A program made the position numbers and the translations under genes. The notes beneath the pieces are model-generated. The model saw only the letters and a list, made by a program, of their open reading frames with translations, ran no database searches and was not told where the DNA came from. From a virus, in IMG/VR virus record IMGVR_UViG_3300048597_000118, positions 1-64,000 of that record: a stretch of 64,000 nucleotides of DNA. The stretch is one strand, 5' to 3'. This document shows, piece after piece, positions 29,309 through 64,000 of this stretch (position 1 is the stretch's first letter; the number at the start of each line of letters is the position of its first letter).

Positions 29309-31555
29309 TTAAGAGGCTGGGTATATAGGACTAGTGACAATACCATTGTTAGGCTGTGCCACAGGGGCAGGTAACGGAGACTTAGGATAATCTAACAGGG
29401 AGTAAGGAGTAGTTATAAAACCAGGGGTTGGTTCTGGGCTTTGCTCTACTACTACAGCATACTTAATTAATGGTCCTTCAGTTTCTATTTCTTCTGTTGG
29501 GGGCTCTTCTACTTCTATAGGTATTGCTCCTTCAGCAGGTATAGAATCTATTGAACCTAAAGGCTCGGGTCCCATAACTTCAGGCGGACCTTCTACTCCG
29601 ATAGGTGTACCTCCTCCTGCTGATACGTCGTCTATGCCTGCTAAGTCTTCAGGCGGACCTTCTACTCCAATAGCTTCTCCTACTTCTCCTGATATGTCAT
29701 CTATAGGAGCTAAGTCTTCTACTGTAGTAACAAATAGCTCAGGTAGGCGCATTAAGTCAGGATTTTCTACCTGTGTTAATCCAACTATACTTTCTTGCAT
29801 ATAGGTAGGGCCTTCTCCAATGTAAAACTGGATAGGTTGCGGGCTACGGAAAATAATTTCTTTAGCATCTAAGATTAACTGCCCATCTCTACAAGTGATA
29901 TTTAAGTTGTCCGTTGATTCTAAAGCTAACTTTTCTGCCGCCCGAATAAAGATATCTTTGGTGGCATCTAATACTATATCTGTAGCGAGAGCCAACACAG
30001 ATTCTTTAGCTTTAACCAATAAGCGCCCTAGTAGACTGAATAAGTTTACGTTTCCTGTGGCACTAAGTGTGTAATTGGCCTTAACTGGCTCTAATGGCTC
30101 CAATGTTTCTTCTCCATCGACTGGCACTTCACCTTCCAAACCTTCTTGCATACTAGCTGGTCCATTCATACCATCCTCTACCGCCCCTGCTACCGCTCCT
30201 GCTCCTGCTCCTGCTACAGCCCCTGCTCCTGCTCTTGCTGAAGCAGGTCCGCTCATACCATCATCTACAGAAGTAGCACCGCCAGCTGCCCCGGCTGAAG
30301 CAGGTCCACTCATGCCGTCATCTGTTGTAAGTGCTTCTTCTTCGTTACCGCTTTCATCAGACTCACCTCCAATAGACGAGCCTAGGCTAGAAAGACTAAA
30401 CCCACCTATACGGACATCCACGCCGTCTAAATACTTGTAGGTAGCCACGTTATATACTTCGTTCAACGCGTTGCCACCATTAACTACTTGGTGAGTGGCG
30501 TAGTTATATAAGTTCTTAGTTTGGTTGACCATGGCATCTTCTGCGCGATGCCATTGATAAAAACAGCTGAGTTGGTCTATACCTGTTTGTCTAAACGTGG
30601 CCGACGATGATTGTTGAATTAAATATTCAGTGTTAATCATCGTAGTTGGGGCATAAATGTCAAACACTGTACCAGAGTTAAATCTGTGACTCTGAGCTGA
30701 AGAGTTATAAGCATTGGAACTTTGTACGACTACGCTACCTTTATTAGTGAAGTCATACTTCTTCATAATGAAGCCGAGTCGGGACATAGAATACGCCAAA
30801 GTAGTGGAATATTCGCCTATCTCACTAGCTACGCTTAAGTCTCCTACTCCAAGTCCAGTCAACCATAGTCTCAACTTCAGCATCTCATCTGCTTTATGGC
30901 TGCCATTTAATAAATTAGTTAATCCGTTATACCTAGATACTGCTTCTTTAGCCGCCCCTCTTAAAGGCTCTTTGCGTAAAATATCATCTTTAGCTTCAAT
31001 AGGTACTTTGCCTGAAGCGGCTAAATCACCTAATAAAGAACCGGGACTTGATTGACCTCCACCACCTGCGGCACTTAAAGCAGAACCAGCTTGAGTATAC
31101 AAACCGACAAGTTCTTCAGAAGCCTGATTAGCTTGGTAAGGAGGCAAACTAGGGTATGCTCCGTCACCGACAGGCAAACTATTACTCTCAGCATCCAGGT
31201 AATTTACTACCACTTGTGAGCCGTCTTTGAAATCACTGGGTAGTCCAGGGCTAATTCTGAATGTATTTGGCTGATCAGTGGGTTGTATATTATCTATAGG
31301 CAGTCTTACAGAAGTAGTCTGGTCAGGACTAATAGCAGTGACTGTAAAATTGTTAGTGTTTGGCAAGGCACTAGTGTCGCCTAATATGCTTACATTTATA
31401 GTGTTATCTGTGGCACCTTTTACTAGCGGCACGTCAGTAGAAGAGCTAACTGTAATTCCGGTGTCAGGACCTACTGTGCCATAAGTTAATGGCGCACCAC
31501 TATCTCCAGGAAATAATAATTCGTTTAAGTCGTAAGTTTGGGGTAAGACTGCCAT
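29309..31555 (-). CDS. Spike-associated protein with gp5/VgrG C-terminal-like beta repeats and acidic Pro/Gly repeats
   Basis: Periodic segment LLVKAKESVLALATDIVLDATKDIFIRAAEKLALESTDNLNIT; low-complexity repeats. Confidence 0.55.
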   Translation of the reverse strand: MAVLPQTYDLNELLFPGDSGAPLTYGTVGPDTGITVSSSTDVPLVKGATDNTINVSILGDTSALPNTNNFTVTAISPDQTTSVRLPIDNIQPTDQPNTFRISPGLPSDFKDGSQVVVNYLDAESNSLPVGDGAYPSLPPYQANQASEELVGLYTQAGSALSAAGGGGQSSPGSLLGDLAASGKVPIEAKDDILRKEPLRGAAKEAVSRYNGLTNLLNGSHKADEMLKLRLWLTGLGVGDLSVASEIGEYSTTLAYSMSRLGFIMKKYDFTNKGSVVVQSSNAYNSSAQSHRFNSGTVFDIYAPTTMINTEYLIQQSSSATFRQTGIDQLSCFYQWHRAEDAMVNQTKNLYNYATHQVVNGGNALNEVYNVATYKYLDGVDVRIGGFSLSSLGSSIGGESDESGNEEEALTTDDGMSGPASAGAAGGATSVDDGMSGPASARAGAGAVAGAGAGAVAGAVEDGMNGPASMQEGLEGEVPVDGEETLEPLEPVKANYTLSATGNVNLFSLLGRLLVKAKESVLALATDIVLDATKDIFIRAAEKLALESTDNLNITCRDGQLILDAKEIIFRSPQPIQFYIGEGPTYMQESIVGLTQVENPDLMRLPELFVTTVEDLAPIDDISGEVGEAIGVEGPPEDLAGIDDVSAGGGTPIGVEGPPEVMGPEPLGSIDSIPAEGAIPIEVEEPPTEEIETEGPLIKYAVVVEQSPEPTPGFITTPYSLLDYPKSPLPAPVAQPNNGIVTSPIYPAS
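29577..29720 (-). repeat. Coding repeats EDLAxIDDxS...IGVEGPPE
   Basis: caggcggaccttctactcc twice and gctaagtcttc twice. Confidence 0.8.
30152..30322 (-). repeat. Three coding repeats (D/E)DGM(S/N)GPAS with AG linkers
   Basis: gctgaagcaggtcc(g/a)ctcat(a/g)cc(a/g)tcatct occurs twice, plus one diverged copy. Confidence 0.85.
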
Positions 31556-39132: not shown

Positions 39133-42100
39133 TTAGAACTGGTCGACACGAGGTCCAGGCAGTGCATTAATAGTTAGGGAAGAACGGAAGTCTAAAATGT
39201 CCGTAACCTTCAGATAATCTCCAGGGAAGATAGGACGAGCTTGAATCAAAATGTTGATGATACCCCGGCGGGCATCGTCTTCAGAGTTGTTTCGCGCATC
39301 ACAAATGGTTGGCTGGTAAGCAGACAACATTTCATTCCGTACAAACTCAGCCAGCACAGCGTCACAAGCACTTGCAATACGACTTAGTAACTGAGGGCTG
39401 ATGTTCTGAGAGCGGTAGCTCAACAAAGACTTGTAGATGCGGTCACGTGCTTGGTCCCAAGAGTGGACTACAGACACATGACGTAACAAGTTATTGGTGG
39501 TAGAGCTAATACCGTTCAAGAACTTAAACACATTCAATCCGGGGTCTAAGTAAAAGACTTCAGTGCCGGACTGAGTGTAAGCTTCTAAGTTAGACGGAGT
39601 AGGATTGATAGAGCTATAAGTAAAGCCGATTACAGAACGTTCACCGTAGGTAGACGCGGGGCTCAAGTGAGGTCCACGGCTAGCACCTAGTCCGATGTAT
39701 GCACCAACTACGGGCTCACTACGATAAGCAATACCGCTCATGCTCCGACCTTGAGCCATCCCTGCAATTTGGATGAACCGAGGAGAGTTAACTTGGGTAC
39801 GCATGGTACCGGCAGAACGAGGAGTAACCGTAGGAGATAACTGGACTACCGCCCGACGGAAACCACCAGTAGAAGGTCCGCTAGAATCTACAATCTCTTT
39901 GAGCTTCTCAAAGACTTCTTTGTAGTCATTGTCGCCGTAGTAAATACCTACGACACCAATCCAAGTAACGTCAATAGAGCGGACTAATTCTAACGCTTCT
40001 AAATAGCCGGCCTTACGGGCTTCAATAGCAGACGTTGCATCTCCAGCTGCCGAGAAGTTAGTTCCTTTACGAAGGAACACATCTGAAATAGTAGAAGACC
40101 CTTGAGCTCCAAATCGAGTAAACCCAGTGGAGTAGGAATTGTCCTGAGCTTCTAGCGCAGGAGCTAAGCGTAGAGGTAGCTGAGTGTAAATGTCAGGTGT
40201 TAACCGTGCAGCACGCACTATAGGATTACTAGGCTCAATAGCAGGAATCAAGTAAACTCGAACCAAGTTAGAAGTTTCGGTCTCTACATAAACACCAGTG
40301 TCAGTGTTGACAGCTTTGTTATCCAGGTAGAAAGACTCTACTTTGGGTCCGCCTAAGCTTACTTCAGCAGAGGTATCTTCTACTTGTAAGTAAAACCGAG
40401 CACTGCCTTCGCTTACTTCATCTGGGATAATGGTCACGCGGATGTTATTACCATAATCACCAGGGCTTAAAGCTTGTATACGGACTAAAGGGCGCCCGTC
40501 TAAAGCGTAGAAGTCACGGTATGCAAAGGAGCCGCTGTCCCGTCCACCCGTATAAGCATAATACTTATCAGGACCATAGTTATCCTGAGTGTAAATGCCG
40601 TCTTTAGTTAGAGACATCAACACATCACGAGTTTGGTCTTGACTTTCTAAACTAATAAGAGCTCCAACGTATAACTCGTCAGAGAATGCGCTCTGAACTT
40701 CAGAGGGCATGTCAAACTCTACATAATTGGTGCTAGCTGCACTAATGGGGTAGTAAGTACCGTTAAAGGTTACGCCGTAGTCCTCGTAGTTGTTAATAAC
40801 AACATTAGACACAGACTCGACCATGAACTTGTCATCGTCCATTGCTGAAAACACTAGCTCAGGTCCAGCAACATAACGAACTAAATTCCACAAGCACCGG
40901 TTAGATTCCAATCCAGTGATGCTGGGTCGCACTTGGAACATGTACGGCGTCATACCAATGACATTTTCTACCGCACTAGTCATAGAAGAGAATGCCGGGT
41001 CAGCGTAAATGGCATACTCTAAGTCCCGCATAATGTTAGCCAGTGGAGTGCCTTTTGCATACGCTTCTGGGGTACCGGCTCGACCACCTACAACAACTTG
41101 AGTCCGCACAAAAGGTACGGTCCATTGCGTGCCCTGAGTTAAGTTCAGGCGACTATCATTAGGAAGTCCATAAAGGATTTTAATGCCGACAGATTCCTGA
41201 CCTAAGACAGTAGCAGTGGAATAAGATAAAGGCGCTACTAAGTATTTGAACTCGATAGCTTTATTGCCGTTACCTTCAGTTAACACATAGTAAGCGTCAG
41301 CACCGGTCAGGTTAGGCACTTTGAAGTAGTTGTAGCCATCCTGTTGTGCAGACAAGTTGGCGAAAGTATCAGTCTGTACATATCCATAGGAAACTAAGAT
41401 TTTACTCTTAGAAGGAAAATGTACACGGAAAGGTTTAGTTACAGCGGCGGTGTTGGGCGCAGTTAACACAATGTAATCATTTACTTTGGTTTTTTCTGCG
41501 ACGTTGCCTGCTACAGTAACGGTAACCAACCCAGTAGTGGCTACATAAGGAGTAGTAACGGAATCAACTACAAAGGTTTCTTTAGAGTGACCAAAGGTTA
41601 ATTTAGTTCCTACTACAATAGTTGAGCTAGTTAAACCTTTAATAGCAACCGTAGAAGTCGTGGCTCCAGGAGTAATTGAAGCAACTCGTGGTGCGATAGT
41701 AACCCTAGAGTCTTCCTCCACTGTGGAGCTTAAGTTGTTACCAAGTTCCAAAGTTACCGATGCATCGGTGTTAGCAGCGCTTTCAATTAGATATACAGAC
41801 TCGTTAATTAACAATGCCGAGTCTTCTAAGATAGTCAGCTGATCAGCAGTAGGTTCCCAATCTGCTCCTAACGCACCAAAAGTGGCGTCAAAGGTAATCT
41901 CACGTAGTCCAGAAATGGAAGTTACAACACCGTTAACAGTGGTACTGGGGCTAAAATGACCAGTTACTACGATGCCTTTTAGTCCAGCGTCTTCGTTAAT
42001 GTAAAAGGGCTGTGAGGCAATAGTCAGTCCTTCTTGCTGCCCATTTTCGCTAGATAGTAGTGAGAAACCAGGATTAAGGAAATTCTCAACGTAGGCGTTG

Positions 42101-42732
42101 TTGCCTTCAGTGTAAGAAACAATCTGGTACTCTTCAGGTGCTGTATTACGAACAGTCATTTGTAGAGCCTGTACAGAGTCTTCATACACTACAGGCTCAG
42201 CAAAGTTACCCTTTTGAATATATTGAGCATTAAAGTTAAATTGACCGCGCCCAAAGAAATTGGGGTGGGTCACATGACCAGTTTCAGTACGCAACTCTCC
42301 GTAATGAGTCACAGCACTTACCGGGCTGCCAATATAATCAAAAGTCAGTCTAAGACCTGTAGTGCGGTTGAATACGTCTAATACGTTAGTAGTGCTGACG
42401 CCAGACTCAAAACCAGTCTTAGGAACTACGTTGGGGTCTTCACCGGCCAAATAAAACCGGAGATAGCCAGGCTGGGTGCTGGGTACAACACGAATAGCAG
42501 TAGCGTTGGCAGCGCCCTGTTGTAAGGCTTGCTGTAACGCAATAGAACCAGAGCTACTATCTTCACCAAAAAGAGAGGCTAAAACAGAACGTTGTTTAGA
42601 AGTTACAGGGCGCAAAGGACCACGGTTAAATTCCCCGATGATAGCGTAACCATCACGCCAGGGAGCAGTAGAAGGAACGGGGCCTAAGATCCGAGAATCA
42701 AAAGAAATATGTGGGAAAGTATAATCAGCCAT
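39133..42732 (-). CDS. Contractile tail sheath protein (1199 aa)
   Basis: N-terminal FPHI..AIIGEFNRGP, middle ALSPGDYGNNIRV, C-terminal ICDARNNSEDDARRGIINILIQARP. Confidence 0.92.
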   Translation of the reverse strand: MADYTFPHISFDSRILGPVPSTAPWRDGYAIIGEFNRGPLRPVTSKQRSVLASLFGEDSSSGSIALQQALQQGAANATAIRVVPSTQPGYLRFYLAGEDPNVVPKTGFESGVSTTNVLDVFNRTTGLRLTFDYIGSPVSAVTHYGELRTETGHVTHPNFFGRGQFNFNAQYIQKGNFAEPVVYEDSVQALQMTVRNTAPEEYQIVSYTEGNNAYVENFLNPGFSLLSSENGQQEGLTIASQPFYINEDAGLKGIVVTGHFSPSTTVNGVVTSISGLREITFDATFGALGADWEPTADQLTILEDSALLINESVYLIESAANTDASVTLELGNNLSSTVEEDSRVTIAPRVASITPGATTSTVAIKGLTSSTIVVGTKLTFGHSKETFVVDSVTTPYVATTGLVTVTVAGNVAEKTKVNDYIVLTAPNTAAVTKPFRVHFPSKSKILVSYGYVQTDTFANLSAQQDGYNYFKVPNLTGADAYYVLTEGNGNKAIEFKYLVAPLSYSTATVLGQESVGIKILYGLPNDSRLNLTQGTQWTVPFVRTQVVVGGRAGTPEAYAKGTPLANIMRDLEYAIYADPAFSSMTSAVENVIGMTPYMFQVRPSITGLESNRCLWNLVRYVAGPELVFSAMDDDKFMVESVSNVVINNYEDYGVTFNGTYYPISAASTNYVEFDMPSEVQSAFSDELYVGALISLESQDQTRDVLMSLTKDGIYTQDNYGPDKYYAYTGGRDSGSFAYRDFYALDGRPLVRIQALSPGDYGNNIRVTIIPDEVSEGSARFYLQVEDTSAEVSLGGPKVESFYLDNKAVNTDTGVYVETETSNLVRVYLIPAIEPSNPIVRAARLTPDIYTQLPLRLAPALEAQDNSYSTGFTRFGAQGSSTISDVFLRKGTNFSAAGDATSAIEARKAGYLEALELVRSIDVTWIGVVGIYYGDNDYKEVFEKLKEIVDSSGPSTGGFRRAVVQLSPTVTPRSAGTMRTQVNSPRFIQIAGMAQGRSMSGIAYRSEPVVGAYIGLGASRGPHLSPASTYGERSVIGFTYSSINPTPSNLEAYTQSGTEVFYLDPGLNVFKFLNGISSTTNNLLRHVSVVHSWDQARDRIYKSLLSYRSQNISPQLLSRIASACDAVLAEFVRNEMLSAYQPTICDARNNSEDDARRGIINILIQARPIFPGDYLKVTDILDFRSSLTINALPGPRVDQF

Positions 42733-50608: not shown

Positions 50609-51238
50609 ATGGAAAGTAACAATCCTACGTACCTATTAGCCACTTTAGACCAACTACGCTCATATCTAACAATTACAGAGTCCTCTTTCAGTGAAGGAGC
50701 TTTCAACTGCTCTCTAATAACCCGCAACACTAAAGTAGCACCTCTTAAATTTCAAGCCCTTGAATTAGCGAAGAAATTAACCTATGAGTGGGACCAACTA
50801 AAGACTAGAGTCAACGTATATCAAACATTAACCGACTTACCGGAGTCAAAAGACTTGGCTAGTGCCGCCTGCTTTTATTACTGCCACAGTCTTATCCTTG
50901 ACTCTGTGGGTTGGGCTAATTTTGTCTCAGGAAAGCTACGGTACCGCATATATGGTACCCCTTATATGCGAGAAGAATCAGAATTGTTAGACCGTAAAAC
51001 CGTAGTAGGTGCAGCAGCAATATTATACGGGCTGTCCATAAATGAATATATAGGCTCCCACTACACAGTCAAAACACCAGAGGGGAAAGAACACTTCCTT
51101 CGTGGGGCAGAAAATCATTGCTCTTGTAGTAGATACTCAATAGGACCCAATGGATTCTGCGAGCATTCTGCTTTAGGTAAAGTCTATTGTGATAATAGAG
51201 CTTTGCTGGTTAATACTGGTTTAGCCTCCTTCTTTTAG
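50609..51238 (+). CDS. SWIM zinc-finger protein
   Basis: YTVK...HCSC-x10-CEH; a 209-aa ORF that fills the gap between minus-strand genes. Confidence 0.8.
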   Translation: MESNNPTYLLATLDQLRSYLTITESSFSEGAFNCSLITRNTKVAPLKFQALELAKKLTYEWDQLKTRVNVYQTLTDLPESKDLASAACFYYCHSLILDSVGWANFVSGKLRYRIYGTPYMREESELLDRKTVVGAAAILYGLSINEYIGSHYTVKTPEGKEHFLRGAENHCSCSRYSIGPNGFCEHSALGKVYCDNRALLVNTGLASFF

Positions 51239-52708
51239 GTTCTTTTTGGGGTTGCCGGCGGCCGGCTTAGCTGGCTGTCGGTCTTGTTGTTGAGGCTTGA
51301 CATTACCAGTAGGTCTACCAGGCTCTGCTTTCTTAACCGCTTCACCTGTGGGCTTTTGTAGTGGCTCAATTAATATCTGTTTAATGAACTTAACGTCAGC
51401 AGAAGTTTGTTCACGCTCGCTAAGACCAGCCATTTGACGCACCATGGCCCAGTCCATACTATCCAATGGGTTAAGATAAGCCTTCTCAGTTAGACCAGTT
51501 ACTACTTGCATAGTAGCTACCCGGTCTTCAGGTCGGTCACTATATTGATTAGCAAAAGTAGGCGGTATCTTAGCCGAAGCCCTATTAAAATTCCATTGCT
51601 GTACAGTCATTAGACACTTCTGTACAACATGGTTGATTAAAGCCCGCCGCTCATTATAAATGGTCTTAAAGTAAACCTCCATACGACGCTCACGAGCAGC
51701 CTCTAAGGAGTTAGTGTCCATAATCAGAAAGTATGGCACTATATGCCGGATAGACTCAGCATCTACAAACCGGAGGGTGTTTAGAAACACATCACCAAAG
51801 TTGTCACTAGAAGGAATAGAACCAATTTCCGGCTTAAAGTCGTTACCAGCCTGAAGTTGCGGCAGTAGTATATGCCGTAAGTCTTCTTGGTTAATTTCTA
51901 GCTGCTCTTGGATATACTCCAGAGTAGTCTTTGGTCTTTCATTACCAGTGGCTGGGTCTAATATCATCTCATCTCCTAAAGAAGTAGAGGGAGACCTAAT
52001 CCAGGTAACACGTTTCCCTACGTCATTCATAGCGCTGACCATCATTTCGACCAGCACCTCTTTTAACCGGAACCACTTATACGAGGGCGCCACTAAAGAA
52101 TGACCATAGTAATTCCCATACTCAGAGTTAGACGCCAGATAGATATGCTTCCACATCTGTAATTGACGTTCACCCCTAGGGTCTAAAGTATGATGTTGGA
52201 AGATGCCAGACTTATGACCGCTTAACGTCTTAGAGCCTTCAGTTAAGAGCCCATCTTTATCCGGGTAAATAGTAATAGTGGTTGGATGATAAGTTAAAAC
52301 ATCTTTTAAGGTGAGCGCCCCAAAGGTTAAGTTATAGCAAACCTCAGATACAGAGAAGCCCGCCCAGTCCTTAGTAAACTGTATTTCCCGTAAAACTTGT
52401 TCCCATGCTTTTCCAGAGTGGTCTTCTAAGGCTAATAGACTATTACGGTGGAACTCTTGAATTTCTTCATCTGGATGAACTGGAAGCCCAATAGACCCAA
52501 CAATAGAGTTAACTCTTGTCTGTTCTGCTGAGTGAATGGTTAAGTCTTGTCGCACCATCTTTTCATAGGTACGGAGCTTAGCTTGTAGCGGTCGGTTTAA
52601 TAATAGTTGGTTAAACTGGCCTTGTTGTTGTAGTTTGTACCGTGCGCTGCGTCTATCTGCGTAGCGTATATCACCGGCCGGGAACGGATTAGTAGGTTGA
52701 GTAGGCAC
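51221..52708 (-). CDS. Portal protein (Mu gp29/DUF935-like)
   Basis: YEKMVRQDLTI..AGFSVSEV.Y..NYYGHSLVAPSYKWF; first gene of the head module. Confidence 0.88.
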   Translation of the reverse strand: MPTQPTNPFPAGDIRYADRRSARYKLQQQGQFNQLLLNRPLQAKLRTYEKMVRQDLTIHSAEQTRVNSIVGSIGLPVHPDEEIQEFHRNSLLALEDHSGKAWEQVLREIQFTKDWAGFSVSEVCYNLTFGALTLKDVLTYHPTTITIYPDKDGLLTEGSKTLSGHKSGIFQHHTLDPRGERQLQMWKHIYLASNSEYGNYYGHSLVAPSYKWFRLKEVLVEMMVSAMNDVGKRVTWIRSPSTSLGDEMILDPATGNERPKTTLEYIQEQLEINQEDLRHILLPQLQAGNDFKPEIGSIPSSDNFGDVFLNTLRFVDAESIRHIVPYFLIMDTNSLEAARERRMEVYFKTIYNERRALINHVVQKCLMTVQQWNFNRASAKIPPTFANQYSDRPEDRVATMQVVTGLTEKAYLNPLDSMDWAMVRQMAGLSEREQTSADVKFIKQILIEPLQKPTGEAVKKAEPGRPTGNVKPQQQDRQPAKPAAGNPKKNLKEGG

Positions 52709-52821: not shown

Positions 52822-52995
52822 CTTGCTAAGGACCACTTAACTTGACATCCTCCACTTCCCTAAAGGGAAGGGATTCCTACGAAGCAAACAGATTTAACTG
52901 AATAGCTTTTCGGTGGGTTGACGCTTCACAGGATGCCGCTACCGAAGTAGTCTTACGCTTTCCTCCACGTCCGTTTTCAGTCTCCGAACGTCCTA
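52822..52995 (-). ncRNA. TnpB omegaRNA-like scaffold plus flanking guide
   Basis: Reads as a tnpB tail (GRSETENGRGGKRKTTSVAASCEASTHRKAIQLNLFAS*) running into the right-end hairpin and TCAA. Confidence 0.65.
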
Positions 52996-53553
52996 TGAAC
53001 TTACAGATACAATATTTGACCCCTGACATCGACTTTTGTGGCGGGACCAACCGTTAATTGTACTCAAAGGAATATCTAAATTTCTTGATATATCACTTTG
53101 CGTAACGCCTTCGTTTAAGAGACTTAACACAGTAGTGATGGTGGAGTCTCTATATTTACATTTACCGTGTTTTTCCCCCGTTACATATTTAGCTCGACCA
53201 TTCTTTAACTTATGGTCTGTGTTTGCTTGGGGCGTTACCCATTCCAGGTTAGAGACGCAGTTGTTTAATGGGTTTGAGTCTATATGATTCACCTGTAAAT
53301 TAGAGCTTATCGGTCTGCCGATAAACGTTGTGGCTACTAGCGTATGGACACATATATGCTTTTTGACAGCATTCTTACTTAAAGCTACGCAAGGATAACC
53401 TTTTCTAAGAGTAGGACTTAACTTTTTGCGTGGAGCATGTCTGTAAGAGCCTCCTTTAGCCTTAACCATCTTGTCCGTAGCGTAAATTGACCCATCAGAC
53501 CCGCACTCATAGAGTCCCTCATAACCTGCTATCGGTCTAAATTCTATTTCCAT
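52993..53553 (-). CDS. NUMOD4-HNH endonuclease with C-terminal HTH
   Basis: FRPIAGYEGLYE; VHTLVATTF..QVNHIDSNPLNNCVSNLEWVT..N; TQSDISRNLDIPLSTI. Confidence 0.92.
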   Translation of the reverse strand: MEIEFRPIAGYEGLYECGSDGSIYATDKMVKAKGGSYRHAPRKKLSPTLRKGYPCVALSKNAVKKHICVHTLVATTFIGRPISSNLQVNHIDSNPLNNCVSNLEWVTPQANTDHKLKNGRAKYVTGEKHGKCKYRDSTITTVLSLLNEGVTQSDISRNLDIPLSTINGWSRHKSRCQGSNIVSVSS

Positions 53554-55275: not shown

Positions 55276-55283
55276 GTTTGCCG

Positions 55284-55316
55284 AGCCCGACTCAACTAGA
55301 GCCGGGCTTCTTTTTT
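55284..55316 (+). terminator. Intrinsic terminator after the chaperone genes
   Basis: AGCCCGACTC-AACTA-GAGCCGGGCT followed by TCTTTTTT. Confidence 0.7.
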
Positions 55317-55363
55317 AGAAGTAGAGTAAGACTATAGCCCCCTCTATTTGAAGCGCCCTTACC

Positions 55364-58300
55364 GTGTCAGATTTTACTTACACTTCAGACCCGGCTCTAC
55401 AAAAACTTATAGAGCTTCTAAAAAACCAAGAAATAGTCCAGGCAGTTAAGGAGAAGCTTGCTGCTAGTGGACCGGCTATGACAGCCACTATCTTCTCAAG
55501 ACAGTTAGCACAAGCCTTAAATGAAGTAGTAAGTGATAAAGGACTTCAAGCTGAATATAGTATCACAGTAGAGCTGGTAGACGCCTATTTAAAATCGGAG
55601 AACAGAGAAAGAGATGTTTTTCCAGAACAACAGGCACAATGGGCGCGGCTTAGATCCAACGTAGCTGGACATTCTATAACCGCCGACTTTGTAGAAGATG
55701 TACACACTAAGCATTTAGACCCTTACAAAGCCATAAAGGACTTCTCAGATAAGTTCAAAGGCAATGTAGAGACTAAGGGGTTTGCTTCTAGCATCGGAGC
55801 CCGTGGACTAAACGTAGACCAAAGTTCTGAGCGGACGTTTACTTACTATGACGACAATGCCAGATTCCAGGGTAATAGACTAGCTGAGTCTATAGATAGT
55901 GACGGTAGGTTTAGTAGGCAACTAAAACTTACTTCTGATAGTTACGCTACCCCGCAAGGGTATATCAGTAGACCAGCTACCCAAGATTATTACAACCTAT
56001 TTGCCGATAAAGAGCGGTCTGGTATGGGCTTTAGAGGCTCTATCTTCCAAGTTCAAGAGGCGGGCTTTATGTCGGGTATAACACAGCGCACTGGCAGTAC
56101 TGAGTTAGTCACCCAAAGATTATCTTCTGTACAAGTCATATCAGCTGCATATGACAAAGAGGAAGAAGCTTCCAGCCCTATGAACTTATATGGATCTAAC
56201 GATGTCAGCATATATGCTTCTGAAGTCTTAGCCGAGCGTCACAAAAGACCATTAAAAATGATGGGCATAGAAATGCCCGGAGGGTCTGTACACGCTAAAT
56301 TGGGTTACTGGTATAAAGAAGGTACAGCCGGCGATGTAAACGATGTGCAGTCTTTCTTCATCAGCTCTCAGAACTTAACCCATACTTTATCTCGGTCTAA
56401 CACAGTAGAAGACATGCTGTTGATTAATAGACCGTCTGACGAAGCAGGGCTGTCTACTTTTAATTCTGTAGCTAAAGAATTAAAGATAGCCGCCGATGCT
56501 CTGATTAGTGTCGCCAGAGACCAAGCTCAGAATAATACTGCTATAACTAGCCTTTCTGATATATCAGCCTCTAGGAGCTTCTTCAGACGTTTTACAGACA
56601 ATATAACGGCAGCAGCGGGTACAGAGGTTAACAAAGAAAACCGGACTATCTTCGCTAACCAAGAGATTAAAGGTCAGTTTAGCCGTATGTTTAAGGAAGC
56701 TGCTGAGTCTAAGTCTAACAAGCTTATCATTACACAACAGTACTTTGAGCAGTCCTTAATAGGCAGAGAAGGAGATTTTGGCTCAACATTACTATCTGAC
56801 TCTGATGTTGGTTATTTACAAAGTTTGGCGTCTAGAGGCGGCATCAAAATTGGTGTGACCGGCTCTAGTATGGGCGGCGACTCCCAAGGTCTTTTTAGTT
56901 TGTTAGATAAGTTCGAAGCTGCAAAACCTGGAAAGCTGACTGGGTCTCAGCTAAAGCGGTATAACCTGCTTAAAACATTAATTAGTGGTCAGCCTGGTCA
57001 GGAAAGTGCCTTCACCTTAATGCCGAGCCAATATCTACATAGTAAGTCTATGGCTATGTTTAGTGGCTCTGGAAGACTATTGGAGTACGCGTTGGGCTCT
57101 GCCAACTTCAGTGAAAAAGCTCTGGTGCCAGCGTCGAGGCAAGAGCCATCAGATGAATTTGGGTTAAAGACTACAGACAACATAGAAGTAGCTGGTTTCT
57201 TTAGGACTAAAAACAATAGTCTGAGTCTGCTATCCAAAGCTGACCAACAGCGTATAAAAGACAATTACTTCTACGGCATAGGTAGATACCAAGAAGGAAA
57301 AGAGTCAGAGGAAGAGATAGACGACCCTAACGGTCGATTAATTAACAGGTATGGTCGTGATTTACGCCACCGCTATCAAGGTGCCCAAGTACAGCAAAAA
57401 GGCAGCGCTAAATTCGTTAAGTCTGCCATAGAAATGATAGAAGGTATGGGCGGCAAAGAATATTCTGCTGAAGGGTCTTCAGATGCACTGTTCAGGTATA
57501 AAAAAGAATATATCCTCGACTCCCAGTCTGACTCTGGGTACAGATTAGTAGGGCTGAAATTAAACATAGCCCAGCCAATTTCAAGTGGCAAAGACTACTC
57601 TATTAGTCTAACCATAGGTTCAGAGTTCAAATCTATACAAACTGGTCGTGGTGGAGGGTATAAGACTGTAGAGTCGCCTATGGTCTACATCAATAAGACC
57701 CAGCGCTTTATGACTGGTGCAGTCTTTAAAAACGCCACGGATACTACCTTCCATTTCATGCGCTACAACGAACTGGATGGAAAAATAGGTTTGGCGGCGC
57801 TCAAACCACAAGAAAGTTATGAAGCTAACTCTTTAGATGTGTTGGGTGGCTTCCTAACTACCATGCAAACCAGCATGAATTACGAAGCTAAAGTCCGTGG
57901 TATTGCTTATACCTATGAAGCATTAGGCGCAGACATAATGAAAAAGTCCGCCGAGAGGGTAATTGCAGAAAAAGTAACTGCTTTATACCTATACTCTTCT
58001 GCTGGTGAAACACCTACAGAAACCCAAATAAGGACTGTACTCGACGCCAGACGACAAGGGCTAGGTGCTTTGTTGTCGTTGGTCCAAAAGAGTGGACGAT
58101 TAGGCGACGTACTTCAAAATACACAATACGACTTCTCTGGCAATATCACTAAATCGGACATCATACCTAATAACTGGGGTGACTCTTCCGCAGTCAGACG
58201 TGAAAGGAGAGTAGGTTTACAAAACATATTTAAAGATGTTATTCGCGACGCCAACTCTGCTAACACTCAAGACTTAGCAAAAAAACTAGTCAACAACTTT

Positions 58301-61300
58301 AATGCCGCCCTACAGAAATCCGTCGGACTTCTACCTGACGACATACGAGACTATACTTCCGGCTTCACTGGGCAATATAACGACATCATCATGCAGATAT
58401 TTGCTGCCACTCCAGTAGGCATGCAGATTTATAAGGATGCTGTTAGCGCCGGTTATAGCGAATCTTACTCCAGACAAGTAGACGCTTATTCTCAACCACA
58501 CACCGAAAACTATAGCCACGGTCAGTCCTTGCACTCTAAACCAGTGGTAGGTATCACTCCAGAGAATATGGACCTATTCCGCTTAGTTTCCCCTATGTTA
58601 GGAGCTAACCCTGATGCTGTGGGCGGTAAAGTTGGTGGTTTAATCCTTAATCCTTATCCTTTAAGTCATGGAGAACAGTTAGGTAATAGCACCGGCGGAC
58701 AATATCTACGCACAGTAAGTAAGTCAGTAGGGCGTGCCCAGGTCCAACCATTTACACAACAAATAGGTGGCCTCACTAAGATTCAAGGCGGCGCCCCAGT
58801 CGTCTATAACATGCTTGGCGTGGCCAGCTCTATGCCCACACTCCAAGCTATAGACCGCCAAGGGTATAAGGAGAGGTCTGCCCAAGTCTTGTCAAAAATG
58901 GGACTCAAGGACGCGGAGGCAACTAACATAGTTAAGAGCTTAGAATCTCAAACCTTTGACCCTGTATTTGGTGGGAAAAGTAAAGAAGAAGACGAAGAAG
59001 CTAAAGAGTACGACCTGCTCTACTACTTCCCTTATGCCAAGACAGAGCAAATCATGCAACGGATGAAGAACCTACTCTCCACCCGTCCTATGTTTGACGC
59101 TTCTAGGGAATTCATAGACTACTCTTATTCTCTAGGGCTTTTAGGTCGTTATTCTAATTACCAAATGGAAGGGGGTGATAAGAAAGACTTCTTAACCTCT
59201 CCATCTGACCTGATCGGTGGTCGGCTCTTAGATAGCATGCCAATCCAACAATTTGAATCCATAGTAGCCAGAACTGAGGCTAAATACACAGACAAGCAAA
59301 GAGAAGCAGCAACTGAATATAAAAAGATACTTAGTGACCCAAAGGCTAGTCGTGAACAAAAGATAGCTGCCGGTCGAGCATTACAGGAAATAGACCAGCC
59401 TATAATGCTCCAACTGGCTAAAGACAATGCTATTGATGTCTATGCAGTTGGCAAAGGGTATATGGGTAGTGAGCGCCCACGACTTAATATCCTTGTGGCC
59501 GGAGCTACTCAATTAGCAGACTACGGGATATATAACACTAGTTACCGTAAAGACACCTATAAATATGGGATGAAGTTGTTAAAACCTCACCCAGTTCAAA
59601 CGAATATCACTTTGAGTGGGGGGCAGATAGGTCCGGCGTCTTTACAGAGCGCAGTTCAGAAATATCTACAACCTGGTACTGTCTTCATCGCTAGAGATAC
59701 CACCATACAACACACGCAAGTAATTCAAGCCTTTAATGAGCAACTTAAGGATGCTTTAGAGGTTTCAGTTAAAGAAGTAGGTGTCACTAAAGGTCTGGAG
59801 GCAGTGAAGTTTAGTGTAGACACCAGTAGTAGTCTTACTAGACAAAGCATTAGGCAGAGTATAGTAACGGCTTTAGGGAGCGCAAATATAGACAACACTG
59901 AGATAGATGCTATATACAAAGGTGCCGTAGCTAAACTAAGGGGCGAAAACCAAGGTATTCGTGTAATAACTGACTACAAGACCGGGCAAGTTGGGTATGT
60001 TTTGGGTCGTGGGGCTTACCAAAGCGGACGCCAAGTAGGGGAAGTATCTTCACTAAATACCACTAACGTCAAAATAGGGGATTTAGACCCTGGGGACGCC
60101 GCATTTAAGATGTGGGGTTTTATGTCTTATGACGGCGGACATGCTCAACCTCTACAAATTAGAGTGCCTGCTATTACTGGGGATGAACTTAACTCCATAA
60201 GTGTTTTAGGTGAGACTACCGTTATAGCTATGACAGGTAATACTGCCACTATAGATACCCAGTTCTACAACGTAGAAGATTTTATGAGTGGTATGCGGGC
60301 CGGCTCTATCATTCCTAAAGGACCTATGAAGGGCGGTAAGAGAGAGTTATTCGAAGCCGCTGTTGGTCTAATAGGTCAAGAGTCTATTAACTTACTTCCG
60401 TCTACGGTAAAAGGACCTGGCGAGACTAGTATCAAAGCCGAAGATGTTTACTCTATGATCAGCCCTTCTCAAGTCAAAGCCTTTAACTTTGAGATTGGTT
60501 TGATGATGCTTGCCGATAAACAAGAGAGTGGCATCTATAAACGTCTGACTGACGCTGATACGGGCGGCGTTAACGTGGCCATGGCGCTGTCTATGCTATT
60601 CCTTAACTCCAAAGCAGATGATATTGGAGGTAAAGATAATCTGGCTATGTTATATGACCGTCTCAGTAACACTTTATCTAGTGAGCAAAGAGATGGTAAA
60701 AGTGCTTATGGTAAGCAATATGCCGCCGCCCTACGGGCTAAAAAGTCTCTATTAAAGTTAGGGCAGACAGACTCAACTACAGCCTTTACTTCTTTTAGTA
60801 GTGCGCCAGGCTCTGCATCTTTAGCTATGTTCAGTGCTTTGGCGGGCTTTGGTAAATGGACTAGTGACTCTGAAAGTATAGAATCAGCACTTCTAAATCA
60901 AATCATTACAGCCTTAGGTACTGATAAGAAAGAGGCTGAAGCTGCTCAAAAGAGACTATCTGACGCAGCTAAAGGTCTGATGGACTATGCCTTTGCTGAA
61001 AAGTCTCGGGGTGGTGTCATTATAGAAGACTTTGAGACTAAGCCTTTAGGGCTATTGTCGTTCTTAACTAAAGCTAGTGCTGATATTTATAGAGACTTAG
61101 ATAAAGAACAGTTGAGGAAAACCCGCGCCTTGGGCGAAGTTATTCTCAGCAGCAAAAGCCTATTTACCTCGCCAGAGAGTCTAATAGTTGATGTTGATGG
61201 TTTAGATGAGACTTATAAAAAATCCAGGGATTCCGTTCTGGTAGCCCTGAGTAATCTATTCTCTGTAGGAGAATCTACTTCTCGTAGGAAGCAAATACAA

Positions 61301-64000
61301 GTAGAGATGCAGCGCCGTAAGGCTTACTTGTTAGCAGGAGAAATCCATAAGATATCAGGGGGTGATATAGATGCGGCACAGCGAATACTTAATCCGACCC
61401 TAAGCGTAGACGAATTCTTAACTAGAGCAGGTATAGCACAGCAACGTAGGATTCTACCTGAAGGTATGAAGCCCCGCACAGGGTTAGAATCCCGCTTTGC
61501 TACTGTAGACCTCTGGAGCTCCATGCAGAGTATGTATGCTAAATCAGGGTCGGAACCAAGTCTAAAACAGCTGGGTGTCAGAGAGTTTAATCCTTACTTA
61601 GAAGCCATCAATCAATTAGTAGGCAAAGGTCAAACTCAAAGGTCTGTCTTAGATGACCTTATTGCTTCTACAGGAAGTACCGCTACAGATTCTCAAAAGA
61701 CGTTGCGGTCTAATTTCGAAGACACCCTCCGCAAATTAGTTGTTCGACGTAGTGCTATGGGTCCACAACTCCTTGAAGTGCAGGAAAGATTGGAGAAACT
61801 GGGTATTACCGACTTTTCTGCTAATTCTGAATTTGGCAAGCTACTAGGTTCTTATCAAGAAGGAATAGTGGAGTCTATAGACACCTATGAGGTATCTAAG
61901 GTATCTACAGTAGACGCATTGATGGGCTTTTATAGTTCTACAGAAGCCTACGCCGGTTTAGCTGATGAGACTATACAGAAGGCTATGCTGACACAAGCTC
62001 AACGTATGGGATACTCTTTGCCTAGTCAAAAACTAATCAGAAGCATACTAGATAAAATCAGTAAGAGCACCCAAGATTCTGACATTACAGAAGGTGAGTA
62101 CCGGGCGTTAAAAGAAGTGGAGTTGGTGTTTGAAGGTATTACGGCGGCTATTCAGCAGGCCCGCACCATTACTCTACCAATGGAGACTAACTTCAGCAAA
62201 ATTAGCACGCCGGCGGGTAGTAAAGACTCTACGGCCCTAGAAGGTCATCTTAGTCGTTCTATGACTGAGCGGCAGCTAAAACAGTATACTTATGCGCTGG
62301 AAGAGTTTGCTGATTTAACCTCCGTACAAAACGCTCTGATGAGTCTTACTAAGGCTTACTACGGCTCTATACCAAACGCTAAACAGCGACAGTCTTTAAT
62401 CAGTATGGACTTGTCTAACATCAATTCTTGGCGTTGGAATGACTTAGAACGTAATAAACAGGGCAAATTGGTTAGGTCTCAAGGTGAGGCTAAAGGTCAA
62501 ACACAGGACGCTCACTCTAAACAGTTCCTATGGGATTACTTGGCTAATTACAACAGTCTTTATCGTAATGCACTACCTGGAGAAGACAGTGAAGTCGGCT
62601 TCTCTCGCATAAGCATAGACAATTTTATTAATACGGGTAGGGCTCAAACAGATGTTATGAGCACAATGGAGCGTATTAATATCATCGCCTACGGTCCAGC
62701 TGGTAAGTCTGATGACCCTGCTGAAGAATTACAACGCCGTGCCACTAATTCAGCCACGTTTACTTTTGATGAGCTCAGTGAAGGTATTTCACGTAAACGC
62801 ACTACGGATAAACTCGTTAAATTGGCTTCTTCTGGTTTAGACCAGTATCTAGCATATATAGACAGTACCGATTTACCTGAATCAGATAAAAAGGCAGTAA
62901 GTGAGATACTAGCTAAAGAAAGAGGGCTATATAAGTCTCAAATAAACTACTTTGTCGCAGAGAGTATTAAAGGGAAAAGGTCTAAAGATGAAATTCTTGG
63001 CGATGATATATTCAGACAAGGTATAGATGACGCAGAAGTGCAGCGTATTAAACCATTTATTCCTGGAGATAGAGGGATATTAGGTTACTTCAACTTCTTA
63101 GAAGAGTCACTAACGCCATTGAAGGAAAGCGAATCTAAGACTTGGCTGTCTACTGTTTTAAGTGGTGATTCTGCAAGAGCTAACGCCAAACTGCGTCAAG
63201 ACGAGATAGAACGACTGGCGGCGCCTGGTGGTAACATACACCAGAAAATACAACACGCCCAGGCACAAGACCAAGGCGCTGCGTATTTAGAAGGAATGAA
63301 AAGTATATATAAGACCCTTCAAGGTATGCCTACAGGCAGGAAGTCTGTTAGCACACGAGGCAGACGTATAAATGCACTAAAACGAAGCATTGAAAAAACA
63401 CAGTTTATATCGCTCTACTCCTATGAAATAGCTTCTACTGAAGGTGGGCTACTAAGACTACAGCACCGCACTAACATGCGCGGCGAGAAGTACAGTGAGA
63501 CCGGTTTAATCTTAGGGTTAGATGTCTTAGAGAAGATGTCTCTACTATTCCAAAACAGCAGTCACGAGGCCTTGGTAGCTCAACAGGATTTGGTGACTAA
63601 GTTAGCTGCTGCTAAAAACATCATTGACCGCGTAGAAACTGGTTTAGTTAAAGGTTATCTAGGCGAAGAGGTAGATGTTAAGGCCACTGGTGTCACTCAA
63701 GAAGAATGGCAGCAGTTACGCGACCTTCAACAGGCCATGATGGCGTCCAAAATAACCGCTGTCAGTATTTTGCAGAATGAGAACAGTATTAGACAAGCCA
63801 CTGGCAACCGTCTTAATATGATGGGCTCTTCTTTCATTGCCATGAATAGCTTCTTAGTAGGCGCTACTGAAGTGGCATTAGGGGCACGGTTTGATTCCGC
63901 TGCTGGTGTAACTACAGCCGGTGGGTATATGCGGTTTATGGCTAACGTAGCGCCGCGCACCAGAGATATGGATAAATACCTTTTGGTAGACCCAGACCAA
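55364..64000 (+). CDS. Giant (>2,879 aa, 3' end outside window) protein in the tape-measure position, with twin PLD motifs and putative two-barrel RNA polymerase motifs
   Basis: GTG at 55364 follows an in-frame TGA and reads MSDFTYTSDP. The frame is open to the window end. PLD motifs are VHAKLG..ISSQN and LHSKSM..LGSAN. Confidence 0.9.
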   Translation, partial: MSDFTYTSDPALQKLIELLKNQEIVQAVKEKLAASGPAMTATIFSRQLAQALNEVVSDKGLQAEYSITVELVDAYLKSENRERDVFPEQQAQWARLRSNVAGHSITADFVEDVHTKHLDPYKAIKDFSDKFKGNVETKGFASSIGARGLNVDQSSERTFTYYDDNARFQGNRLAESIDSDGRFSRQLKLTSDSYATPQGYISRPATQDYYNLFADKERSGMGFRGSIFQVQEAGFMSGITQRTGSTELVTQRLSSVQVISAAYDKEEEASSPMNLYGSNDVSIYASEVLAERHKRPLKMMGIEMPGGSVHAKLGYWYKEGTAGDVNDVQSFFISSQNLTHTLSRSNTVEDMLLINRPSDEAGLSTFNSVAKELKIAADALISVARDQAQNNTAITSLSDISASRSFFRRFTDNITAAAGTEVNKENRTIFANQEIKGQFSRMFKEAAESKSNKLIITQQYFEQSLIGREGDFGSTLLSDSDVGYLQSLASRGGIKIGVTGSSMGGDSQGLFSLLDKFEAAKPGKLTGSQLKRYNLLKTLISGQPGQESAFTLMPSQYLHSKSMAMFSGSGRLLEYALGSANFSEKALVPASRQEPSDEFGLKTTDNIEVAGFFRTKNNSLSLLSKADQQRIKDNYFYGIGRYQEGKESEEEIDDPNGRLINRYGRDLRHRYQGAQVQQKGSAKFVKSAIEMIEGMGGKEYSAEGSSDALFRYKKEYILDSQSDSGYRLVGLKLNIAQPISSGKDYSISLTIGSEFKSIQTGRGGGYKTVESPMVYINKTQRFMTGAVFKNATDTTFHFMRYNELDGKIGLAALKPQESYEANSLDVLGGFLTTMQTSMNYEAKVRGIAYTYEALGADIMKKSAERVIAEKVTALYLYSSAGETPTETQIRTVLDARRQGLGALLSLVQKSGRLGDVLQNTQYDFSGNITKSDIIPNNWGDSSAVRRERRVGLQNIFKDVIRDANSANTQDLAKKLVNNFNAALQKSVGLLPDDIRDYTSGFTGQYNDIIMQIFAATPVGMQIYKDAVSAGYSESYSRQVDAYSQPHTENYSHGQSLHSKPVVGITPENMDLFRLVSPMLGANPDAVGGKVGGLILNPYPLSHGEQLGNSTGGQYLRTVSKSVGRAQVQPFTQQIGGLTKIQGGAPVVYNMLGVASSMPTLQAIDRQGYKERSAQVLSKMGLKDAEATNIVKSLESQTFDPVFGGKSKEEDEEAKEYDLLYYFPYAKTEQIMQRMKNLLSTRPMFDASREFIDYSYSLGLLGRYSNYQMEGGDKKDFLTSPSDLIGGRLLDSMPIQQFESIVARTEAKYTDKQREAATEYKKILSDPKASREQKIAAGRALQEIDQPIMLQLAKDNAIDVYAVGKGYMGSERPRLNILVAGATQLADYGIYNTSYRKDTYKYGMKLLKPHPVQTNITLSGGQIGPASLQSAVQKYLQPGTVFIARDTTIQHTQVIQAFNEQLKDALEVSVKEVGVTKGLEAVKFSVDTSSSLTRQSIRQSIVTALGSANIDNTEIDAIYKGAVAKLRGENQGIRVITDYKTGQVGYVLGRGAYQSGRQVGEVSSLNTTNVKIGDLDPGDAAFKMWGFMSYDGGHAQPLQIRVPAITGDELNSISVLGETTVIAMTGNTATIDTQFYNVEDFMSGMRAGSIIPKGPMKGGKRELFEAAVGLIGQESINLLPSTVKGPGETSIKAEDVYSMISPSQVKAFNFEIGLMMLADKQESGIYKRLTDADTGGVNVAMALSMLFLNSKADDIGGKDNLAMLYDRLSNTLSSEQRDGKSAYGKQYAAALRAKKSLLKLGQTDSTTAFTSFSSAPGSASLAMFSALAGFGKWTSDSESIESALLNQIITALGTDKKEAEAAQKRLSDAAKGLMDYAFAEKSRGGVIIEDFETKPLGLLSFLTKASADIYRDLDKEQLRKTRALGEVILSSKSLFTSPESLIVDVDGLDETYKKSRDSVLVALSNLFSVGESTSRRKQIQVEMQRRKAYLLAGEIHKISGGDIDAAQRILNPTLSVDEFLTRAGIAQQRRILPEGMKPRTGLESRFATVDLWSSMQSMYAKSGSEPSLKQLGVREFNPYLEAINQLVGKGQTQRSVLDDLIASTGSTATDSQKTLRSNFEDTLRKLVVRRSAMGPQLLEVQERLEKLGITDFSANSEFGKLLGSYQEGIVESIDTYEVSKVSTVDALMGFYSSTEAYAGLADETIQKAMLTQAQRMGYSLPSQKLIRSILDKISKSTQDSDITEGEYRALKEVELVFEGITAAIQQARTITLPMETNFSKISTPAGSKDSTALEGHLSRSMTERQLKQYTYALEEFADLTSVQNALMSLTKAYYGSIPNAKQRQSLISMDLSNINSWRWNDLERNKQGKLVRSQGEAKGQTQDAHSKQFLWDYLANYNSLYRNALPGEDSEVGFSRISIDNFINTGRAQTDVMSTMERINIIAYGPAGKSDDPAEELQRRATNSATFTFDELSEGISRKRTTDKLVKLASSGLDQYLAYIDSTDLPESDKKAVSEILAKERGLYKSQINYFVAESIKGKRSKDEILGDDIFRQGIDDAEVQRIKPFIPGDRGILGYFNFLEESLTPLKESESKTWLSTVLSGDSARANAKLRQDEIERLAAPGGNIHQKIQHAQAQDQGAAYLEGMKSIYKTLQGMPTGRKSVSTRGRRINALKRSIEKTQFISLYSYEIASTEGGLLRLQHRTNMRGEKYSETGLILGLDVLEKMSLLFQNSSHEALVAQQDLVTKLAAAKNIIDRVETGLVKGYLGEEVDVKATGVTQEEWQQLRDLQQAMMASKITAVSILQNENSIRQATGNRLNMMGSSFIAMNSFLVGATEVALGARFDSAAGVTTAGGYMRFMANVAPRTRDMDKYLLVDPDQ

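Follow-up and report, generated by a model that had tools for sequence, protein, structure and literature searches.

A 5,173-residue protein encoded beside the portal gene of this virus probably contains a new and very divergent single-chain virion RNA polymerase. Because motifs of the two polymerase barrels are found in order along one chain together with a DYDGD loop, its family probably represents a novel group of virion RNA polymerases that are injected. The two-barrel fold, the polymerase activity and the packaging of the protein in the virion are what we infer from the ordered motifs, their family-wide invariance, the lack of cysteine and the conserved position near the portal gene. Positions are those of the genome, the first 64,000 nucleotides of which (IMG/VR record IMGVR_UViG_3300048597_000118) form the window that was originally analysed.

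Conserved motifs of the giant protein

The original prediction, made from the letters of the window, listed four motif strings in the order of β and then β′, and all four proved to lie in frame within a single open reading frame (Table 1), the start codon of which (VSDF...) is common to this gene and a 65%-identical homologue, P0004. As that prediction itself had cautioned, each match is weak. When scored with BLOSUM62 against E. coli β and β′, no motif scored higher than the top value obtained from shuffled versions of the giant, and the matches are therefore not significant as pairwise resemblances; indeed, other windows of the giant outscored the four motifs. They rise above chance because the family conserves them. 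Among 24–28 aligned relatives of 18–76% identity, all four cover residues that vary little or not at all (G1380, D1386 and N1391; R1645 and K1652-G-P; K1705 and G1712; R2810, G2821 and G2840), which yields the family patterns G..D....N, R..KGP, Q.K and R...(D/N)R....G.S.I. The predicted β-then-β′ order is thus a conserved property of the family, and the invariance of R..KGP and Q.K favors a polymerase.

Table 1. Positions of the giant gene, its motifs and other genes of the virus
Feature	Position	Strand	Remarks
Baseplate_J gene	27098-28192	-	
VgrG-like (spike) gene	29309-31555	-	
Sheath gene	39133-42732	-	~13 kb from the giant
Portal gene	51221-52708	-	Giant diverges from the portal gene
Giant ORF	55364..70885	+	5,173 aa; GTG start; aa 1-2879 within the window (55364..64000)
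First HxK motif, H310-A-K ... S-S-Q-N-L-T	56261..56398	+	H, K, Q, N, T conserved in the family
Second HxK motif, H559-S-K ... G-S-A-N-F-S	57011..57133	+	Conserved in the family
β-like module	59411..60736	+	aa 1350-1791; holds motifs 1-3; model ma76d3392467c
Motif 1	59480..59545	+	aa 1373 on; pattern G.S..SD[FY].Y.N..Y; G1380, D1386, N1391 family-invariant
Motif 2, G-M-R1645-A-G-S-I-I-P-K1652-G-P	60290..60325	+	aa 1643 on; originally listed string 60290-60322; R and KGP invariant in the family
Motif 3, I-S-P-S-Q-V-K1705-A-F-N-F-E-I-G1712	60443..60499	+	aa 1694 on; originally listed string 60443-60478; K and G invariant
Motif 4, I-R2810-Q-A-T-G-N-R-L-N-M-M-G2821-S-S-F-I ... A-L-G2840-A-R-F-D	63788..63892	+	aa 2809 on; originally listed string 63788-63856
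Variable helical insertion	64211-65563		~500 aa (~aa 2950-3400), between motif 4 and R3428.G.P
R3428-Q-G-M-P	65645-65659		In frame; 65 aa upstream of DYDGD
LGDYDGDSYQ; DYDGD (D3493-D3497)	65840-65854		DYDGD coordinates; in frame; 1.8 kb beyond the window
Helicase-bearing giant	85621-95976		TRSP...GDSDGDG and PIF1/RecD helicase; 45 Cys

We propose that the basic residues of motif 2 are the counterparts of K1065 and K1073 of E. coli β, that motif 3 corresponds to β PSR1106, and that motif 4 forms the first strand of a β′-like barrel, the rest of which would lie beyond the window. Reading past 64000 for an in-frame R.P and DxDxD, the check recommended in the original prediction, recovered both an R.P-type sequence and an aspartate loop (Table 1). 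The loop is kept as LGD[YFN]DGD[ST][FY]Q in all relatives whose sequence extends over this region, with GD[YFN]DGD invariant, and DYDGD or its variants DFDGD and DNDGD are retained in ~36 relatives, which account for just 25 clusters out of 1.84 billion representatives. At the level of patterns, both the R.P-type motif and the first-strand R...G.R..S.I motif are present upstream of the loop. In compact members of the family, such as P0018, R.x3(D/N)R.x4.G.S.I stands only ~165 aa upstream of DYDGD. The R.G.P of the giant is placed upstream of the loop just as NRAP or R.P is in β′ and in QDE-1-type enzymes, a further point in favor of a polymerase. The common order of motifs (basic pair, P-S-(R/K), R.x.G.R..S.I, NR.P, D.DGD) is that of cellular β/β′ and of the multisubunit RNA polymerases of the jumbo phages phiKZ and AR9; unlike these enzymes, the giant is a single chain, contains no Pfam RNA polymerase domain and reaches no significant profile or fold score.

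The original prediction had also supposed a PLD-like N terminus, and tandem HxK motifs are in fact conserved there throughout the family (for the first motif, H41, K43, Q67, N68 and T70 are invariant in alignment A8). Their half-sites are spaced more widely than in a canonical PLD (HKD) and the module had no match in Pfam or among PDB profiles, the one external indication being the name that BFVD/UniProt gives to the Ma-LMM01 homologue, 'PLD phosphodiesterase domain-containing protein'. At the other end, a conserved C-terminal domain includes one hydrophobic segment (aa 4897-4922). The giant as a whole lacks cysteine (0 of 5,173 residues), although ~45 would be expected from the 0.87% cysteine of the rest of the proteome, and the residue is likewise missing from all 36 metagenomic and virus-collection relatives that were counted (32 in one count and 4 in another). 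We take this composition as a point in favor of the polymerase reading.

Members of the family are 3,000–5,300 aa long and come from cyanophage-like jumbo phages of freshwater that have contractile tails and genomes of ~155–217 kb. The major head protein of the source virus is ~30% identical to those of the Microcystis phages Ma-LMM01 and MaMV and of a Microcoleus phage, and the virus is a freshwater cyanophage-like jumbo myovirus, in keeping with the cyanomyovirus that had been predicted. Moreover, gp080 of Ma-LMM01 (YP_851094.1, 3,562 aa, annotated as 'hypothetical protein') belongs to the family (family HMM, E 1.7e-37). This homologue is missed by tblastn and was found only via a fold search, in which its second segment was matched with E 2.6e-05. 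It is shorter than the giant and very divergent, and R..KGP was not recognised in it, but it has LGDFDGDTF with R-S-P upstream, ISP..LK.YAF at the place of motif 3, the HxK motifs and only one cysteine, and its gene diverges from the head module, near the head gene cluster.

Similarity searches and structural models

No significant sequence or profile similarity to any described RNA polymerase family was detected with Pfam, PHROGs, PF00623, the PDB or HHalign. PF00623 found nothing at E <= 10 in six frames of the genome, Pfam and PHROGs had no match in either half of the giant (E <= 0.1-1), phmmer of two giant segments against the PDB gave nothing relevant, and family profiles against the PDB returned only coiled-coil and helical noise. 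HHalign of the family against E. coli β was empty; the sole local match of the family profile to β′ (residues 320–500) coincided with motif 4, at a level that is not significant (Prob 0.3%, E 0.19). The ESM Atlas gave no usable match, and tblastn of the catalytic region had no match in 50,697 GenBank phages. PF00940 was not matched in the genome or in four relatives, a result that carries no information because control genomes were also without a match. The known giant virion two-barrel RNA polymerases are likewise without detectable similarity to other RNA polymerases (PMC10770324; bioRxiv 10.1101/2020.03.07.982082).

Structural modeling gave evidence in both directions. An AlphaFold model of the 1,200-aa core of a compact homologue had a pLDDT of 53 overall, and its β′-like region was helical with values <50, which counts against a polymerase; this low-confidence model places a long helix after the DYDGD loop, and long helices dominated the Foldseek and VIA searches in which it was used. 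The model of aa 1350–1791 (pLDDT 70) is beta-rich apart from a helical insert at aa 1451–1528. It re-aligns weakly, mostly to the second-largest RNA polymerase subunits of bacteria, archaea and eukaryotes, and weak matches in BFVD include the RNA polymerases of frog virus 3, pithovirus, mimivirus and vaccinia; in a wide VIA search, matches to the helical insert and ribosomal proteins ranked highest, and none of the first 50 entries was an RNA polymerase. The register of the weak structural alignments is that of the motif pairing, which supports the polymerase reading. The alignments stop at E. coli β 1056 and T. thermophilus β 831, opposite model residues 287 and 289, and their linear extension sets K1065 and K838, respectively, on R1645, while β 1105 lies opposite model residue 357 (aa 1706).

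With less probability, the giant might instead be a protein of the virion, ejected or internal, whose enzymatic modules are not those of a polymerase, for example a PLD-like nuclease or phospholipase. GDYDGD would then bind metal as an acidic loop in some unrelated fold, and the β/β′-like motifs would be coincidental. This explanation agrees with the failure of every sequence, profile and fold search to bring out an RNA polymerase family at a significant level, with the chance-level scores of the single motifs and with the unusual distance between the proposed barrels (~1,100 aa in the giant and ~580 aa in compact members, compared with a connector of ~140 aa in crAss-like phi14:2 gp66 and in QDE-1; bioRxiv 10.1101/2020.03.07.982082). 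It fits poorly with five separate motifs in β-then-β′ order, each on invariant residues, and with the shared register of the alignments to β subunits. The presence of D.DGD in calcium-binding loops would also suit this explanation, but an EF-hand is ruled out by the DYDGD loop itself, from which Gly6 and Glu12 are missing.

Gene order and proposed packaging

In all five related records that were checked, the portal gene lies within ~1–3 kb of the family gene, as it does in this genome. This conserved place beside portal and head genes, together with the lack of cysteine in the giant and its 36 relatives as against the 45 cysteines of the helicase-bearing giant of the same genome, makes it improbable that the protein is a cytoplasmic non-virion polymerase or a replication-transcription factory protein made after infection, on which point the RNA polymerase motifs themselves are silent. 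The original prediction had imagined a takeover system shared with a kinase-bearing giant, which has only the lack of cysteine in common with the portal-adjacent protein; the family HMM detected no homology to either of the other two giants of the genome.

The idea that the giant is a tail tape measure fused to an RNA polymerase, as advanced in the original prediction, did not hold up and is the least likely of the readings. The precedent that it invoked is real, since the tape measure protein of Thermus phage P23-45, gp96, carries a virion RNA polymerase (PMC10770324), and the giant resembles gp96 in its size (gp96 has 5,002 aa), its long helical stretches and its one C-terminal hydrophobic segment. 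However, its gene is on the strand opposite to the tail module, diverging from the portal gene at some distance from the sheath gene (Table 1), and ORFs of 483, 533 and 614 aa already fill the slot that runs from the sheath/tube genes to those for the VgrG-like spike and Baseplate_J. The portal-adjacent place is kept in relatives and is head-proximal in Ma-LMM01, and no tape measure family and no peptidase or lysozyme module was matched in the giant with Pfam or PHROGs (E <= 0.1-1). Finally, a tape measure extends over ~1.5 Å per residue; 5,173 residues would thus correspond to a tail of ~0.8 µm, while that of the related phage MaMV-DH01 is 260 nm.

Proposed function and relation to known systems

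A virion RNA polymerase therefore remains the favored reading of the giant, which we envision as a multidomain protein that the virion would carry and eject into the cell, with a two-barrel RNA polymerase as its central part. The β-like half (~aa 1365–1720) would contribute the basic residues R1645, K1652 and K1705 and would have a beta-rich insert at the site of the flap of β. The β′-like half appears to be split: its putative first strand (aa 2805–2845) would be followed by a lineage-specific helical insertion of ~500 aa and then by R3428.G.P and a predicted Mg-binding loop, D3493-Y-D-G-D3497. The tandem HxK (PLD-like) module (~aa 300–600) would lie N-terminal to the polymerase, and the conserved domain would form the C-terminus. 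Such a protein might be placed in the head close to the portal and exit through the tail with the DNA, whereupon it would transcribe the earliest genes of the phage with no need of the host polymerase. The helicase-bearing, cysteine-containing giant may be a non-virion partner.

Several giant virion proteins provide points of comparison. Like the giant, P23-45 gp96 is a very large virion protein with an aspartate loop (DFDGD) and no detectable similarity to other RNA polymerases (PMC10770324), and its phage encodes a second RNA polymerase besides (PMC10770324). Its polymerase is N-terminal (DFDGD at 779–783) in a siphovirus tape measure that also has metallopeptidase and membrane domains, whereas the giant has its loop at aa 3493, N-terminal HxK motifs, a portal-adjacent gene and a contractile-tail gene set. 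The gp66 protein of crAss-like phage phi14:2 (PDB 6VR4) similarly combines both barrels in the single chain of a large virion protein mostly without known homologues, and it is injected and transcribes the early genes (bioRxiv 10.1101/2020.03.07.982082). It differs in its size (2,180 aa), in belonging to a podovirus and in its DFDID loop, which is without glycine, while the giant has a canonical D.DGD and a beta-rich insert where cellular β has its flap. The coliphage N4 virion RNA polymerase (~3,500 aa) is also a giant that is packaged and injected, although its fold is T7-like and not two-barrel. More tentatively, the giant might stand for a third lineage of injected giant RNA polymerases that arose independently, a single-chain β-β′ fusion that is paired, as virion and non-virion proteins, with the R-S-P...GDSDGDG-PIF1/RecD giant. 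Because such a fusion would keep a flap-like insert, its closer kin might be RNA polymerases of the cellular type and not the YonO/QDE-1/crAss clade.

A two-barrel RNA polymerase concealed within a giant virion protein has been described in crAss-like podoviruses and in one Thermus siphovirus. If our reading is true, the present proteins would add a family without a detectable sequence link to either. The total lack of cysteine may serve as a simple sequence marker of ejected giant proteins. According to transcriptomic work on Ma-LMM01, every gene class relies on host SigA, the means of temporal control being left open (PMC5780444); the dependence on SigA was deduced from in-silico promoter prediction only. 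If the more tentative reading of a third lineage is right, cyanophages of the Ma-LMM01 kind would, contrary to this published view, manage at least in part without the host polymerase. Since gp080 is present in Ma-LMM01, a cultured model phage, the hypothesis lends itself to a direct test in a phage and host that are already available and are relevant to toxic Microcystis blooms.

Motifs and conservation of the giant protein

The IMG/VR record encoding the giant ORF, a candidate virion two-barrel RNA polymerase, comprises 101,169 bp and is 68% complete (CheckV); its bases 1-64000 form the window. Four strings that had been likened to E. coli RNA polymerase β (motifs 1 to 3) and β′ (motif 4) were found exactly where the original prediction placed them, all within this ORF. 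The observation was real, and its key prediction, a DxDGD motif past position 64000, was confirmed by the in-frame sequence F-M-G-L-G-D-Y-D-G-D-S-Y-Q (aa 3485-3500), with R-Q-G-M-P lying 65 residues upstream of DYDGD. Some 50 nt ahead of the GTG start, within window positions 55282-55363, lies a GC-rich hairpin with a T-run after it, resembling a terminator; no Shine-Dalgarno-like sequence is evident.

A profile search with giant aa 2790-3850 recovered only 25 clusters among 1.84 billion representative proteins, nearly all of 3,000-5,300 aa, and further family loci were found in IMG/VR (10) and in JGI metagenomes (4 more). Homology spans almost the full length of the giant, with a variable insertion at aa ~2950-3400 that is missing in compact members. 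In the compact fragment P0018, the motif-4 block lies only ~165 aa before DYDGD, a spacing comparable to that of the same two motifs in β′, which are separated by roughly 120 aa. In alignments of 24-28 members (18-76% identity), invariant or near-invariant residues match motifs 1 to 4 (G1380, D1386, N1391; R1645, K1652-G-P; K1705, G1712; R2810, G2821, G2840) and also include R3428, G3430, P3432 and L-G-D-Y/F/N-D-G-D.

Coordinates of the giant and associated features
Feature	Position	Strand	Remarks
First giant ORF	window 2-13978	minus	4,659 aa or more; continues past contig start; no cysteine
Structural block	14-53 kb	minus	large terminase with HNH insert, tail fibre, Baseplate_J, weak VgrG-like spike, tail sheath, major head protein, Mu-type portal
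Portal gene	51221-52708	minus	giant gene (plus strand) diverges from it
Giant ORF	55364 (GTG) to 70885 in full record	plus	5,173 aa; continues past window end
Motifs 1, 2, 3, 4	giant aa 1373, 1643, 1694, 2809	plus	read in ORF translation
Five D.DGD residues	genome 65840-65854	plus	translation past 64000
Conserved blocks	giant aa 95-890, 1005-1950, 2190-2490, 2610-2950, 3410-4080, 4790-5130
Third giant	genome 85621-95976 (locus L004:1621-11979)	plus	3,452 aa; 45 Cys
gp080 gene	Ma-LMM01 57700-68388 (locus L028:7701-18389)	minus	family member

Sequence and fold comparisons with RNA polymerases

Each motif, aligned pairwise with E. coli β or β′, scored within the range of shuffled sequences. No RNA polymerase match to the giant was obtained with Pfam or PHROGs, nor was an RNA polymerase found by a six-frame PF00623 search or by PDB sequence and profile searches with the giant and its family. 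HHalign returned no alignment of the family profile with E. coli β and a single local one with β′ 320-500 (Prob 0.3%, E 0.19), which reproduces the motif-4 pairing precisely, with a one-residue gap. RNA polymerase membership by sequence is therefore not demonstrated. The authors describing gp96, the P23-45 tape-measure protein that carries a virion RNA polymerase, likewise report that it has no detectable sequence similarity to other RNA polymerases (PMC10770324).

A 1,200-aa model of the core of compact homologue L014 (12 alignment rows) was poor (pLDDT 53; β′-like region < 50), and structure searches with it yielded nothing informative. The model of giant aa 1350-1791 (24 alignment rows) reached pLDDT 70.1 and pTM 0.55. 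For this model, no Foldseek row from the PDB reached E <= 0.001; BFVD gave one significant match (E 2.6e-05), to segment 2 of a Ma-LMM01 protein named "PLD phosphodiesterase domain-containing protein", and weak rows that include the RNA polymerases of frog virus 3, pithovirus, mimivirus and vaccinia. In the weak fold alignments β 1105 lies next to K1705, and their linear extension brings E. coli K1065 and Thermus K838 onto R1645; this register agrees with the motif pairing, and a β-rich insert of the model sits where β has its flap. The fold evidence is no more than suggestive of a two-barrel RNA polymerase.

Phage type, gene position and putative virion delivery

The minus-strand set of tail and head genes identifies a contractile-tailed phage. 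By head protein, its closest cultured relatives (~30% identity) are a Microcoleus phage and the Microcystis phages Ma-LMM01 and MaMV; the related records in IMG/VR measure 155-217 kb, with completeness of 88-100%. A tape-measure position had been proposed for the giant, and this we reject because the usual slot, from sheath/tube to spike/baseplate, holds other ORFs of 483, 533 and 614 aa, and the giant gene lies on the opposite strand. The 1,466-aa large terminase ORF (window 14666-19066, minus) contains an HNH endonuclease segment at aa ~1110-1270, suggestive of an inserted homing element or intein. Between the portal and giant genes lies a NUMOD4-HNH-HTH homing-type endonuclease gene (52993-53553, minus); it may be absent from the related record G001, since the corresponding gap there is only ~1.5 kb. 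The portal homologue of another relative, G005 (C1:106110-107558), has one in-frame TAA inside the match.

Cysteine is absent from the giant, from 32 relatives counted and from 4 further metagenome ORFs; ~45 would be expected in the giant, as other proteins of the genome average 0.87% Cys. The gene lies within ~1-3 kb of the portal gene here and in all five related records checked, down to 33% portal identity. Together, the missing cysteines and portal proximity provide indirect evidence of putative virion delivery. The giant has one hydrophobic segment (aa 4897-4922) and two HxK...(G/S)(S/T)(Q/A)N motifs (aa ~310 and 559), which are conserved across the family and were matched by none of the profile methods tried.

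Related giants and a cultured family member

The family HMM detected no homology in the first giant (E 0.037). The third carries T-R-S-P followed 65 aa later by G-D-S-D-G-D-G (aa 2119), a region conserved in four of five related phage records, and has at its C-terminus a PIF1/RecD-like helicase (AAA_19/AAA_30, aa 2970-3137); it is a candidate non-virion two-barrel polymerase-helicase fusion. Pairs of virion and non-virion polymerases have been described for other phages (PMC10770324), and the candidate virion polymerase together with the third giant would fit such a pair.

In Ma-LMM01, the 3,562-aa "hypothetical protein" gp080 matches the family HMM (E 1.7e-37); tblastn of the family catalytic region against a GenBank phage collection missed it. 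Its gene and the head and tail module are transcribed divergently. The protein possesses LGDFDGDTF, R-S-P ~55 aa upstream, ISP..LK.YAF, ALG.RFD and HxK, and its only cysteine lies close to the annotated start. Counter-evidence to a virion RNA polymerase comes from Ma-LMM01 transcriptomics, in which every temporal class was found to have SigA-like motifs upstream and dependence on the host polymerase was concluded. These promoters are in silico predictions, the paper itself notes that the temporal programme is left unexplained, and the passages concerned report no rifampicin test (PMC5780444).

RNA polymerase is the best available reading of the giant and probably the correct one, resting on the conservation and order of the motifs, on weak co-linear fold matches and on context, rather than on demonstrated homology or fold. 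Since Ma-LMM01 carries gp080, a phage already in culture is available for testing this reading.
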